Shown: piece by piece, positions 25,245-28,456 of the stretch | Position numbering within the stretch: position 1 is the first letter of the stretch | How the letters are laid out: every line of letters starts with the position of its first letter | Source of the DNA: Escherichia phage vB_EcoM_R5505 | Length of the DNA: 64,000 nucleotides | Reading direction: 5' to 3' (one strand) | Sequence record: MK373786.1 | Notes under the pieces: generated by a model | The model's input: the letters and a program-made list of their open reading frames with translations, nothing else | Told to the model about the DNA's origin: nothing | Databases searched by the model: none | Program-made: the position numbers and the translations under genes

Positions 25245-25826
25245 CTAACCGAGCTTTTTAGTTAATTCATTCCAATGTTTTCTACACAAAGAAACATAAA
25301 TTTCATCACCAATACAGATTTGATTACCTTCTTTAACTGGTGTTCCATCTTCCATTAATCGAGCTGTCATAATCGCTTTTTTGCCGCAATGACAAACTGC
25401 CTTTAGTTCAATAAGTTTATCTGCAATCGCTAAAAGTTCTTTAGAACCTTCAAACAATTTTCCAGCGAAATCAGTCCTTAATCCATAAGCCATAACAGGA
25501 ACATTATATGTATCAACAATTCGACTTAATTGATGCACTTGTTCAGTTTTTAAAAACTGAGCTTCATCTACAAATACGCAATGAATATCTTTTTGTGCTT
25601 CAGCCCATTTATAGAACTCGAAAATATCCATATCATCTGTAATAATATTCGCTTCCTGTTTAATTCCAATGCGAGAAACAACTTCACAGACAGAATCGCG
25701 AGTATCAATAGCAGGCTTAAGAACTAATACACTCATTCCACGTTCTTTATAATTATGTGCAGCAGTCAAAAGAGAAGCAGATTTTCCAGCATTCATTGCT
25801 GCATAAGTAAAAATTAAACTCGCCAT
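25245..25826 (-). CDS. tk: Thymidine kinase, 193 aa
   Basis: P-loop AAMNAGKS near N-terminus and C-terminal zinc-binding cysteines; 193 aa. Confidence 0.95.
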   Translation of the reverse strand: MASLIFTYAAMNAGKSASLLTAAHNYKERGMSVLVLKPAIDTRDSVCEVVSRIGIKQEANIITDDMDIFEFYKWAEAQKDIHCVFVDEAQFLKTEQVHQLSRIVDTYNVPVMAYGLRTDFAGKLFEGSKELLAIADKLIELKAVCHCGKKAIMTARLMEDGTPVKEGNQICIGDEIYVSLCRKHWNELTKKLG

Positions 25827-25835
25827 ATCACCTTC

Positions 25836-26021
25836 TTAAAGCGTATTCACATAAGCTATTAATTCATTTTCTTTCTTATCAAACCGATCAGCAAATTCTT
25901 CCTGCTGTTCGGGAGATAGCGGGCCGTATTCATCATAAAAGGTGTTTGCTTCTATATGCTCATCTAGAAGTTCATGGATAAGCTCAAACAATTTATCTTT
26001 TTGTTCTTTACTCAGACTCAT
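25836..26021 (-). CDS. Small acidic protein, 61 aa
   Basis: Track ORF. Confidence 0.4.
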   Translation of the reverse strand: MSLSKEQKDKLFELIHELLDEHIEANTFYDEYGPLSPEQQEEFADRFDKKENELIAYVNTL

Positions 26022-26191
26022 ATATTAATTTCCAGGAGTTTTAAAATAATTCGCTTTTGCTTAAATATTTCCATAGTTAAATGACCAGTATCTTTTTGAC
26101 CGATTCCAATGGCAAAACCTTTATTAACAGCGAGTTCAATTAAATTATCAAGCTCACGTAACACTTCGTATTGTAACTCAAAACTATTCAT
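26019..26191 (-). CDS. Small hypothetical protein, about 57 aa (below ORF-track cutoff)
   Basis: Hand-translated MNSFELQYEVLRELDNLIELAVNKGFAIGIGQKD...; ATGA overlaps with both neighbours. Confidence 0.35.
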
Positions 26192-26415
26192 TTTGGTTTA
26201 CCTTCTTTAACGAAATCAGGATAAGGATAAAATCCTGAATAAAATCCTTCACCTTTATGATTGATGCATCCTTTATTAGAACAATAGCACCAATAATCGA
26301 AATCACAAGCCATTTCATCATTACATAAAGCAAAAACAACAGGCCATTTACACTTTTCACAATGGGCATTTTTAAGAATACTAGTTTGGCTCATAACCAT
26401 GTAACCTTTAAGCAA
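26188..26415 (-). CDS. Cysteine-rich small protein, 75 aa
   Basis: Multiple Cys pairs (CEKCKW, CNDEMACDFDYWCYCSNKGC) suggest metal binding. Confidence 0.4.
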   Translation of the reverse strand: MLKGYMVMSQTSILKNAHCEKCKWPVVFALCNDEMACDFDYWCYCSNKGCINHKGEGFYSGFYPYPDFVKEGKPK

Positions 26416-26603
26416 TATTCTTCTACATGTTGTTTACGACCTTTCTTATCAATAAAGGTATATTCAACGAATGTTCCAATGTAGTCTTTATCTACATCAT
26501 GTGGACTATTAATTGGACATTTAGTACGGCAAATGCGTTCCCATTGACGAATAATTTCCACTTTGTTTTTAGGATCAAACGGATGTGGGTAATGTACTTT
26601 CAT
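26391..26603 (-). CDS. Small hypothetical protein, 70 aa
   Basis: Track ORF. Confidence 0.4.
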   Translation of the reverse strand: MKVHYPHPFDPKNKVEIIRQWERICRTKCPINSPHDVDKDYIGTFVEYTFIDKKGRKQHVEEYCLKVTWL

Positions 26604-27054
26604 AATCCACCACTATTAAATCAATATCAGGAGTAAACATGTCGATTAATTTAGAAACCTTATCCCAATCGCCGCCAGCAATACCACAACCTATGCGTGG
26701 AATGTAAATTACTGGTTTAAACAAAAGGGTTTCTGCCTGTAGATTTAATTCTATCATGCAGTTTACTAAAGCACCATAATCAAGATTAGGACCTGGTTCG
26801 TATTGCGTATACAGGTTATAGCATATACCAAAACCATTAGGTTTATGTTTAAAAACAATAGACATATCGCCTAATTTATCACGAGAACCGTACTCAGTAG
26901 TGGTTTTATCTATTTCTAAAATTTTGGGATAGGCTCTTGCTAATTGACCCGCTACACCTGAACCCATAGTATGAAAACAATTGCACCCGTGCGCAATAAT
27001 ATTACCTTGAAGAAATAGGGCGACAATATCGCCCTTGATATATTTTACAATCAT
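26575..27054 (-). CDS. Macro-domain (ADP-ribose binding/processing) protein, 159 aa
   Basis: N-terminus IKGDIVALFLQGNIIAHGCNCFHTMGSGVAGQLARAYP fits the macro-domain fold signature. Confidence 0.65.
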   Translation of the reverse strand: MIVKYIKGDIVALFLQGNIIAHGCNCFHTMGSGVAGQLARAYPKILEIDKTTTEYGSRDKLGDMSIVFKHKPNGFGICYNLYTQYEPGPNLDYGALVNCMIELNLQAETLLFKPVIYIPRIGCGIAGGDWDKVSKLIDMFTPDIDLIVVDYESTLPTSV

Positions 27055-27392
27055 CTAGTACTCAATCCTCGATTATAAGAATCTACCAAACGGTCAACCA
27101 TTGAATGACAAGCGGCTTTATCTTTCTCCTCCGCAACTGAACATTCTAAGGTATTCCACTTTTTAGCATATCGTTTTAATAATGTATCATTTTTGTATCT
27201 GCTTGATTTATCTCTTTCTCCGTCTTTATATGCATATATTAATTTCTGCGCAAATTCAGCTTGGCATGCTTTATTTTTCCCACAATAATCCGCTGCAGTA
27301 CGGTTTACATACTCTCTAATTTCAGTATATGATGTATCTGCTAACGCAGAAAATGAAATTAATCCTATACATAAAACCAAAATTTTAGTCAT
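27051..27392 (-). CDS. Secreted small protein with signal peptide, 113 aa
   Basis: N-terminal signal-like MTKILVLCIGLISFSALADT; four cysteines. Confidence 0.5.
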   Translation of the reverse strand: MTKILVLCIGLISFSALADTSYTEIREYVNRTAADYCGKNKACQAEFAQKLIYAYKDGERDKSSRYKNDTLLKRYAKKWNTLECSVAEEKDKAACHSMVDRLVDSYNRGLSTR

Positions 27393-27930
27393 TTACTATT
27401 TCCAAAAGTTTATTATTTTTAAGGTAATTAGCCTTTTCTAGGACTTCAGAAGCATATTTAGAACCTGCTTTAACATTCCATCCCGAATTATAAGAGGATA
27501 TTGCTTTTCTTATATCGCCCTTATGTATATTTAACCAATAAGAAAGTTCAATGTACGCCCAGGAAGCTGAATTGGACCGTTTATTCAACATTCTTTTTAT
27601 TTCAGCATCGGTCATATTATAACCAAGTTCCTTAACTCTTGCTCGCATAGTAGGCAAATAATTTTGGAACATTCCGTAGGCGTGATGCTTTGCTTTAGAT
27701 TTTAAATTAACTCCGCCAGAGCTTTCTTGCCATAAAATAGCAGCCATTATATGACCCAATCCGCTCTTGTGGATATTTTTGTGTGTTTTATATTTTCCAT
27801 CCTTAGAAAATTGTTCCCCGAATTGATACGCGTAACGCATGTTATCGAGTTGGACATTACTGAAAGTATGCTCGGAGCTATGTGCCATCATTGAAATGGC
27901 CAATAGACCAGCGAGTAGTGCTTTTCTCAT
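27385..27930 (-). CDS. Secreted lytic-transglycosylase-like (SLT-domain) protein, 181 aa
   Basis: Signal peptide MRKALLAGLLAISMMAHS; ILWQESSGG...GMFQ motif resembling SLT catalytic region. Confidence 0.55.
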   Translation of the reverse strand: MRKALLAGLLAISMMAHSSEHTFSNVQLDNMRYAYQFGEQFSKDGKYKTHKNIHKSGLGHIMAAILWQESSGGVNLKSKAKHHAYGMFQNYLPTMRARVKELGYNMTDAEIKRMLNKRSNSASWAYIELSYWLNIHKGDIRKAISSYNSGWNVKAGSKYASEVLEKANYLKNNKLLEIVND

Positions 27931-27937
27931 GCTTACC

Positions 27938-28399
27938 TCATTGAGTTTTAATTACTGCTTTAGAAGCCTTTCCTGGTAAACGACGACTGTTGATAATTGC
28001 CATCCTGCATTGAAGTGACGGGTTTTTGAACTTCTCATTAGGCTTACAAACCGTAAATCCAAGCCAAAGATTTCCATCTGTGATTTCTAAACGTCCAGGA
28101 CGATATTCAACCCCATCAATAAAATCCTCGTCAATGTCAGGACGCGGAGGCATACTCAGGAATTCATTAACTTCTAAAACATGGTCTTTTATTTTATGGA
28201 ATAATTCAAAAACATATGTCTCATCAATCTCCCGTTGAATTGCACGATCAAGAAGATGTTGAGAATATTTTAGATGAAACGATGAGACTCCTGCTGCTTT
28301 TGATGCCTCATGAATCTCATTGTTAATTTGACGAAACTCCGACTCAAAGTGACGACGAAGCTTATTTCGACGGATAAAAACTTCTGTATTGATAGTCAT
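27938..28399 (-). CDS. regB: Site-specific RNA endonuclease RegB, 153 aa
   Basis: 153 aa; position downstream of early promoter 28427-28456; consistent with T4 RegB by length and context (sequence recalled, not searched). Confidence 0.65.
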   Translation of the reverse strand: MTINTEVFIRRNKLRRHFESEFRQINNEIHEASKAAGVSSFHLKYSQHLLDRAIQREIDETYVFELFHKIKDHVLEVNEFLSMPPRPDIDEDFIDGVEYRPGRLEITDGNLWLGFTVCKPNEKFKNPSLQCRMAIINSRRLPGKASKAVIKTQ

Positions 28400-28426: not shown

Positions 28427-28456
28427 ATTATACCACAGTCAAGAGGAAAAGTAAAC
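28427..28456 (-). promoter_or_regulatory. Early-type promoter upstream of regB (GTTTAC-N18-TATAAT)
   Basis: Minus strand GTTTACTTTTCCTCTTGACTGTGGTATAAT. Confidence 0.6.

Follow-up and report, generated by a model that had tools for sequence, protein, structure and literature searches.

The gene at 26575..27054 on the minus strand of the window, as we call the whole 64,000-nucleotide stretch analysed here from Escherichia phage vB_EcoM_R5505 (MK373786.1), encodes a genuine macro domain and is, to judge from its position, the counterpart of tk.4 in phage T4. We consider it probable (roughly 0.7) that its product, Tk.4, is a lysine-independent ADP-ribosyl glycohydrolase which reverses the modification of phage DNA by DarT2. 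The original prediction, which called a macro domain here, was correct and is not new: it adds little as a discovery, since T4 annotations have listed a macro domain in tk.4 for two decades and the anti-DarTG2 role of the gene was reported in 2025.

Macro-domain identity and genomic setting

The reading frame, 159 aa from ATG to stop, encodes a single-domain macrodomain protein; its translated N-terminus is MIVKYIKGDIVALFLQGNIIAHGCNCFHTMGSGVAGQLARAYP, the same peptide to which the original prediction had pointed. Residues 22-136 align with positions 2-117 of the 118 in the Pfam Macro profile (PF01661; E = 6e-8), and the score of 33.1 bits lies above the gathering cut-off of 22 bits. All significant matches in a sequence search of the PDB are macrodomains (BT1257, yeast Poa1p, SCO6735, DarG and TARG1), and PHROG 335, annotated 'phosphatase', matches the protein at E = 1e-71. 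An AlphaFold2 model, for which an alignment of 49 relatives served as input, has a mean pLDDT of 94.1 and a pTM of 0.88, with residues 157-159 below a pLDDT of 50. When this model was compared with solved macrodomains by Foldseek, E values ranged from 5e-10 to 1e-7; TARG1 (E = 5e-10, TM 0.72-0.82), Poa1p, BT1257 and DarG matched best, and coronavirus and alphavirus macrodomains ranked behind them. Foldseek returned 174 PDB matches at E <= 0.001, and the best 50 of these 174 are macrodomains or designed proteins on macrodomain scaffolds. The model has a three-layer alpha/beta/alpha fold with two glycine-rich loops of the type that binds ADP-ribose, in which G31-G36 and G122-G128 align with known macrodomains. 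The original prediction had treated a conserved glycine-rich loop as decisive; both loops were found, and both could be aligned to TARG1, BT1257 and SCO6735. On the profile match, the confident model and the structural matches together, the identity of the domain is established.

The gene was also correctly placed in the interval between tk and regB. PHROG matches and comparison with T4 locate tk (25245-25826) and regB (27938-28399) on the minus strand, each with 95-100% nucleotide identity to its annotated T4 counterpart. Comparison with the T4 record and PHROG scans gave the minus-strand order regB, vs.1 (27385-27930), vs, the macrodomain gene, tk.3, three small open reading frames and tk. 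The upstream neighbour vs (27051..27392, minus strand; PHROG 1256, E = 5e-40) is the valyl-tRNA synthetase modifier of the T4 annotation, and the downstream neighbour tk.3 (26391..26603, minus strand; PHROG 2008) has 92-100% nucleotide identity to T4 tk.3. As the gene order is that of T4, the window gene is the positional equivalent of tk.4, and its vs and tk.3 flanks, together with homology over the full length, mark it on sequence grounds as the positional orthologue. Over the 2 kb around it (26000-28000), identity is 100% to Escherichia phage AV122 and about 99% to many other Tequatroviruses; the source phage is a Tequatrovirus. Two short open reading frames overlapping tk.4 (26427-26636 on the plus strand and 26766-26858 on the minus strand) were without support and were set aside.

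Read straight from the sequence, the stop codon of vs and the start codon of tk.4 overlap in an ATGA (27051..27054, minus strand), an arrangement that would couple translation of tk.4 to that of vs. At the other end, ORF coordinates and the T4 alignment show a 29-nt overlap between the 3' end of tk.4 and the start of tk.3 (26575..26603, minus strand), which is due to a 13-nt gap against the T4 allele; the same gap adds a short, low-confidence C-terminal tail, making the protein 4 aa longer than that of T4. Just upstream of regB lies the sequence in this region that best matches a sigma-70-like promoter (TTTACT-17-TATAAT, TG upstream, 28427..28455, minus strand), a possible start site of a regB-vs.1-vs-tk.4 transcript; in the promoter consensus scan of the region, the number of matches was no higher than in shuffled sequence.

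Active-site residues and related macrodomains

Alignment to DarG, TARG1 and BT1257 places the H-x-C-N active-site motif at H22-G23-C24-N25 (26980..26991, minus strand). N25 is the counterpart of DarG N22 and of N23 in AdfM of phage PhiKZ, and H22 that of SCO6735 H24. We aligned 259 relatives to the profile of the 49-sequence family alignment; with two of them gapped, N25 is kept in 257 of 257 residues at its column and H22 in 251 of 257. Glycine-rich loop 1, the GxG phosphate-binding loop, was assigned to G31-G36 (26947..26964, minus strand) from alignment to TARG1 and DarG; it lies within T29-M-G-S-G-V-A-G36, aligns with MGAGIA of TARG1 and MGKGIA of DarG, and has G33 and A35 invariant or nearly so among the 259 relatives. 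Glycine-rich loop 2, PRIGCGIAGGDW, extends from P119 to W130 (26665..26700, minus strand) and reads P119-R-I-G-C-G-I-A-G-G-D-W130. Its motif is common to BT1257 (PRIGCGLAGGKW) and SCO6735 (PRIGCGLAGGTW), whereas TARG1 has PRIGCGLDRLQW and DarG has PPLGVGNGGLDW.

The position of the catalytic lysine is occupied by a glutamine, Q84 (26803..26805, minus strand), in both the family and the profile alignments, and glutamine is found there in 259 of 259 relatives. Q84 occupies the column of DarG K80 and TARG1 K84 and is equivalent to SCO6735 Q85. In the profile-to-PDB alignment it falls on TARG1 K84, with A126 of loop 2 on the catalytic D125 of TARG1 and the BT1257 glutamine on Q84 itself, and hmmalign likewise puts the DarG lysine in the Q84 column. 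N25, C26, D49, N80, Y82, Q84 and the loop glycines were invariant or nearly so in the 49-sequence alignment and then among the 259 relatives; all family-invariant residues are present in the window allele, whose loop 2 is nearer to the family consensus than that of T4. This residue pattern is established. On this pattern, the T4-type Tk.4 family, in which the asparagine is kept and the catalytic lysine is replaced by an invariant glutamine, is not DarG-like.

Comparison with DarG itself (Thermus and Mycobacterium; PDB 5M31, 5M3E and 5M3I) shows a shared fold, class and N22-type asparagine, and the proposed job, taking the ADP-ribose added by DarT2 off thymidine, would also be common to both. 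DarG, however, has the catalytic K80, binds DarT through a C-terminal domain and is encoded next to darT, whereas the window protein has Q84, no such domain and no darT beside it. Its score on the NCBIfam DarG model (NF048014) is 27.8 bits, where the cut-off is 250. On the PADLOC DarG model, the window protein reaches 27.7 bits, T4 Tk.4 36 and PhiKZ gp104 132.9; to M. tuberculosis DarG, the E value is 1e-24 for gp104 and 2e-5 for window Tk.4. With DarG models far below their cut-offs, the catalytic lysine absent and no DarT-binding domain, we rejected a DarG-type orphan antitoxin.

PhiKZ gp104, which was independently also named AdfM (Cell Rep 2026, PMC13309987), resembles Tk.4 in being a single phage macrodomain and counters DarTG2. 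N23 and K78 in its active site are the equivalents of DarG N22 and K80, it removes the ADP-ribose of DarT2 from DNA in vitro, and mutation of the asparagine lowers its activity (PMC13309987). Unlike T4-type Tk.4, gp104 is a true DarG-type protein, and the name AdfM covers two distinct subfamilies.

The top structural matches are ALC1-like rather than MacroD. Human TARG1 (OARD1) is the best of them, but its catalytic K84/D125 dyad is replaced by Q84/A126 in the window protein; TARG1 also reverses thymidine-linked ADP-ribose (PMC9411070; see also PMC8501950). Poa1p is among the best matches in both sequence and structure (profile E = 9e-15, Foldseek E = 2e-9), and H22 aligns with the HSCNC motif of Poa1p, the part that the residue comparison with Poa1p covered. 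H22 is thus the equivalent of Poa1p H23, a mutagenesis target according to PDB entry titles. Together with the GenBank labels carried by Tk.4 proteins ('phosphatase', 'A1pp motif' or 'Poa1p-like'; the T4 record has 'phosphatase; contains A1pp phosphatase motif'), this similarity would fit an enzyme that processes a small ADP-ribose derivative, whether ADP-ribose-1''-phosphate, as in the legacy annotation of a Poa1p-like phosphatase, O-acetyl-ADP-ribose or an ADPR-based immune signal. We regard such a function as very improbable. The phosphatase annotation is by homology only, no gene making ADP-ribose-1''-phosphate is encoded beside tk.4, the O-acetyl-ADP-ribose deacetylase model (NF001661, MacroD-type, YmdB/Af1521-like) yields 16.5 bits where its cut-off is 291, and the sole known phenotype of an orthologue concerns DarTG2. 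The further suggestion of the original prediction, that a phage macro domain could degrade NAD-derived signals, found no support in this analysis.

Window Tk.4 resembles the Gln-type, ALC1-like proteins SCO6735 of Streptomyces coelicolor and BT1257 of Bacteroides (PDB 5E3B and 2AFC/2FG1), with which it shares glutamine at the lysine position, H-x-C-N, the loop motif PRIGCG[LI]AGGxW and a stand-alone single-domain gene; identity to BT1257 is about 26%. SCO6735 H24-V25-C26-N27 corresponds to H22-G23-C24-N25, Q85 (in ANMIGQ) to Q84, and PRIGCGLAGGTW to PRIGCGIAGGDW, where the SCO6735 sequence around Q85 was obtained via BT1257. SCO6735 surpasses DarG and TARG1 in the efficiency with which it strips thymidine-linked ADP-ribose off DNA, rescues DarT toxicity and loses its activity in Q85A or Q85E (PMC9411070). 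In its proposed mechanism, a water held by the V25 backbone starts the reaction and Gln85 positions the distal ribose, and K34 together with a long, mobile, lysine-bearing loop is said to be important for positioning of the DNA (PMC9411070). K34 corresponds to S32 in window Tk.4 and to A or S in 232 of the 259 relatives, and the loop after Q84 is some six residues shorter than that of SCO6735 and without its lysines K89 and K94 (QYEPGPN compared with QHGMKTGSKGAP). The window protein is also acidic (pI 5.25), whereas SCO6735 and BT1257 are basic. This is no obstacle to the proposed role, because the biochemically validated PhiKZ AdfM has a pI of 5.05; net charge was accordingly discarded as a test of DNA binding, the validated enzyme being equally acidic.

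Proposed substrate and anti-DarTG2 role

The DarTG2 evidence is genetic and comes from a preprint on T4 at 30 C in minimal medium (bioRxiv 10.1101/2025.11.20.689424). In a transposon screen by HIDEN-SEQ, tk.4 was the sole significant hit for T4 grown on E. coli with DarTG2; with the gene cleanly knocked out, T4 was more sensitive to this system, and on plain K-12 the gene was dispensable, being important only with DarTG2 (bioRxiv 10.1101/2025.11.20.689424). The authors noted that the predicted structure of T4 Tk.4 is similar to the DarG macrodomain of M. tuberculosis, named the gene adfM (anti-DarT factor Macrodomain) and put forward the idea that its product strips DNA of ADP-ribose (bioRxiv 10.1101/2025.11.20.689424). 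The requirement under DarTG2 is thus established for the T4 protein only. It is consistent with the earlier finding that T4 without adfA and adfN, and T2 without adfN, are still DarTG2-resistant (PMC11825919), which points to a further factor. A Tk.4 protein has been found in T2-infected cells (bioRxiv 10.64898/2026.06.19.733364). The original prediction had proposed that the domain could reverse ADP-ribosylation by host defences, and this agrees with the later-published work on the T4 orthologue (DarTG2, bioRxiv 10.1101/2025.11.20.689424); it named no substrate, which here would be thymidine-linked ADP-ribose on DNA, and it missed that the window gene is a 57%-identical allele.

The explanation we favour would run as follows. 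Tk.4 would be made from the string of genes between regB and tk.4, its start codon coupled to the stop codon of vs. The host toxin DarT2 would put ADP-ribose on thymidines of single-stranded phage DNA; Tk.4 would hold this ADP-ribose in the cleft between its two glycine-rich loops and cut the ribose-thymine bond, so that phage replication could go on. Q84 and H-G-C-N would serve instead of a catalytic lysine, as in SCO6735, with the glutamine positioning the distal ribose and an activated water starting catalysis. We infer from these comparisons that the T4-type protein hydrolyses DNA-linked ADP-ribose, and that the 57%-identical window allele would have the same activity. Several observations run against this explanation: the 57% identity to the protein that was tested, the missing equivalents of SCO6735 K34 and its lysine loop, DarG scores of 27.7-27.8 bits, and bacterial relatives without DarT nearby.

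Tk.4 might instead neutralise DarT2 chiefly by binding and blocking the toxin rather than by hydrolysing ADP-ribosylated DNA. SCO6735 Q85A, although it has lost catalysis, remains an inhibitor of DarT in vitro, and a stronger one than the DarG or TARG1 mutants (PMC9411070), and phages have anti-DarT factors of the binding type in AdfB and, as proposed, AdfA (PMC10760071). Blocking as the chief mode is nevertheless decidedly improbable, as the residues that are strictly invariant among the 259 relatives are those of the active site (N25, Q84 and the glycine loops), and are so also in bacteria without DarT nearby, and as a single domain of 159 aa has no counterpart of the C-terminal DarT-binding domain of DarG.

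The family to which Tk.4 belongs comprises 1121 clusters at 50% identity (E <= 1e-30). Relatives were found in 2773 of 50,697 phage records; these phages belong to many myovirus groups and have many hosts, among them Pseudomonas, Vibrio, Acinetobacter, Aeromonas and Campylobacter. At least 500 bacterial genomes carry relatives. At the 80 bacterial loci examined, the relatives are single-domain proteins of about 155 aa, and a tblastn search of these loci (714 kb) with one P. aeruginosa DarT2 query, whose reach as a single query is limited, did not find DarT2 within 5 kb (best E = 2.6). A Pfam scan of 150 flanking open reading frames at the bacterial loci gave 132 unrelated families, families with a single reading frame not all being listed, and in the one example checked, a Pelagimonas chromosome, the relative sits among housekeeping genes. 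As no DarT was found near bacterial relatives, the family may originally have acted on a substrate other than DarT-modified DNA. For AdfN, a NADAR factor, an 'orphan antitoxin' picture has been proposed; it does not obviously extend to T4-type Tk.4, whose lineage has the look of a stand-alone macrodomain that phages acquired.

This distribution also bears on whether the main substrates might be ADP-ribosylated proteins or RNA, such that Tk.4 tunes the phage's own Alt, ModA and ModB marks or reverses another host ADP-ribosyltransferase defence, with protection from DarTG2 being either secondary or confined to the allele of T4. T-even phages have three ADP-ribosyltransferases (T4 annotation), the nearest characterised relatives, TARG1 and SCO6735, also de-modify proteins (PMC9411070), and the bacterial relatives are stand-alone genes of housekeeping type. 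We nonetheless consider these substrates quite unlikely to be the main ones. ModA/ModB-type transferases occur in 1015 phage records, and the ten leading name categories, with 16 more behind them, contain only enterobacterial host genera, as compared with 2773 records and a different host range for the macrodomain; the macrodomain is therefore not tied to ModA and ModB, the two transferase types compared. Moreover, tk.4 is non-essential on plain K-12 and matters only with DarTG2.

Divergent alleles of tk.4

Window Tk.4 has 57% amino acid identity to T4 Tk.4 (E = 1e-69), and the T2 protein is identical to that of T4. The two alleles are alike in their vs - tk.4 - tk.3 locus, length class, membership of PHROG 335 and invariant residues, including Q84, but 43% of residues differ inside a nearly identical backbone; loop 2, for example, contains GCGIAGGDW in the window allele and GAGIGKGNW in T4. 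By sliding window and alignment in 60-nt blocks, identity to T4 is 88-100% and mostly 95-100% over regB, vs.1 and vs, falls to 42-82% in a divergent segment (26562..27016, minus strand), and is back up to 92-100% in tk.3. Identity falls off some 40 nt after the start of tk.4 and recovers just within tk.3, and in this respect the divergence looks like a swapped cassette.

We estimated dN/dS between alleles and found values of 0.05 (dS 0.57) between the window allele and that of fDHCT2 (94% amino acid identity), 0.20 (dS 0.88) with Dhakavirus FB and 0.31 (dS 1.25, saturated) with T4. The window allele is thus under purifying selection (dN/dS 0.05). Given a saturated dS between alleles (0.9-1.25), a dN/dS of 0.2-0.3 and sharp boundaries, we rejected positive selection in situ as the source of the divergence from T4 and prefer cassette replacement. 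The diversity of tk.4 alleles would in itself suit a protein-protein interface under pressure, as in toxin blocking; but with synonymous divergence saturated, and dN/dS at 0.05 within an allele and 0.2-0.3 from one allele to another, the pattern indicates the swapping of old lineages and not fast evolution of an interface. These estimates indicate that old, constrained alleles of tk.4 have been exchanged between phages, rather than diversifying fast in place.

Allele frequencies were counted as tblastn matches in the collection of 50,697 phage records. The window allele (at least 90% identity) is present in 318 GenBank phage records, the allele of T4 and T2 (at least 90% identity to T4) in 224, and a third class, 80-90% identical to T4, in 159. 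The next-closest class to the window allele has 75% identity and was found in a Dhakavirus; the BASEL phages FriedrichMiescher, FriedrichZschokke and AndreasVesalius carry the window allele itself. It is unlikely, though conceivable, that these three classes, as swappable cassettes, are functionally non-equivalent, differing in the DarT2 variants or ADP-ribose-nucleobase adducts they reverse or in their sensing by a host system, and that together they form a lysine-independent route of DNA de-ADP-ribosylation which phages took from stand-alone bacterial macrodomains rather than from DarG antitoxins.

The commonest allele in sequenced Tequatroviruses is thus that of the window and not that of T4, and the DarTG2 evidence comes from the T4 allele only, which matters for predictions of resistance in therapeutic or collection phages. 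The active site puts T4-type AdfM in the Gln-type branch with SCO6735, rather than with DarG-like proteins, and Q84 and N25, not a lysine, are therefore the residues to target in assays and mutants.

Macrodomain subfamilies named AdfM

The name AdfM was given independently by two groups to two different macrodomain subfamilies (PMC13309987; bioRxiv 10.1101/2025.11.20.689424). AdfM of PhiKZ (gp104) is of the DarG type, with a catalytic lysine, whereas AdfM of T4 (Tk.4) is of the glutamine type; the common name masks a probable difference in mechanism between the two proteins.

The two ends of tk.4

Just within the coding start of the macrodomain gene tk.4, at codons 7-13 (27017-27035, minus strand), lies a hairpin with a perfect stem of 8 bp and a loop of 3 nt (AGGGCGAT-ATT-GTCGCCCT). 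We found that the stem is identical in four tk.4 alleles, in which synonymous divergence elsewhere is 0.6-1.25; the sole change in the hairpin among these alleles is in the loop, where ATT is replaced by ATC. The collapse of identity to T4 begins directly 3' of this hairpin, which may form a structure in the RNA or else mark a junction of recombination. In a study of T2, Hfq chimeras pair tk.4 mRNA with the sRNA ArcZ.

At its 3' end, tk.4 overlaps tk.3, which is read in a different frame, by 29 nt (26575-26603), whereas the overlap in the T4 allele is just 4 nt (ATGA). Compared with the T4 allele, the gene has a 13-nt gap that makes it run this far into tk.3, and the extra tail that results (…YESTLPTSV) is disordered in the structure model.

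Genes on either side of tk.4

A second block that diverges from T4 lies between tk.3 and tk (25836-26415). It encompasses two small ORFs, one of 57 aa (26018-26191; PHROG 3452) and one of 70 aa that is Cys-rich and zinc-ribbon-like (26188-26400; PHROG 2306); T4 has neither of these, whereas T2 has both at the matching position (T2_114 and T2_115). Where T4 has two ORFs of the tk.1/tk.2 type, only one is found here (25836-26021; PHROG 653).

On the upstream side, vs.1 (27385-27930), annotated in T4 simply as hypothetical, has a signal-like N-terminus and weakly matches families of lytic transglycosylases and endolysins (PHROG 2013 and 669). The best sigma-70-like match of the region, by consensus only, adjoins regB on its upstream side (28427-28455, minus strand; TTTACT-17-TATAAT with TG). 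This candidate promoter would drive a single early transcript, regB-vs.1-vs-tk.4.

Neighbourhoods of tk.4 relatives

Some contigs that carry a tk.4 relative and are labelled as bacterial MAGs or genomes (L010 and L015) have the appearance of phage DNA. Part of the 80 'bacterial' loci surveyed may be non-cellular.

Among the ORFs flanking the relatives in these loci, one is similar to the thymidine kinase of phages and two to the transglycosylase of the vs.1 type; a Pfam scan of flanking ORFs gave two matches to the SLT transglycosylase domain. The macrodomain-tk neighbourhood may reach into distant phages. In the phage-like metagenome contigs L004/L006 (feature at 1541-1888), a contig of roughly 110-200 kb has a gene that matches Pfam Acb5 (anti-CBASS) about 4 kb from the macrodomain homologue, a hint that counter-defence genes may be clustered.
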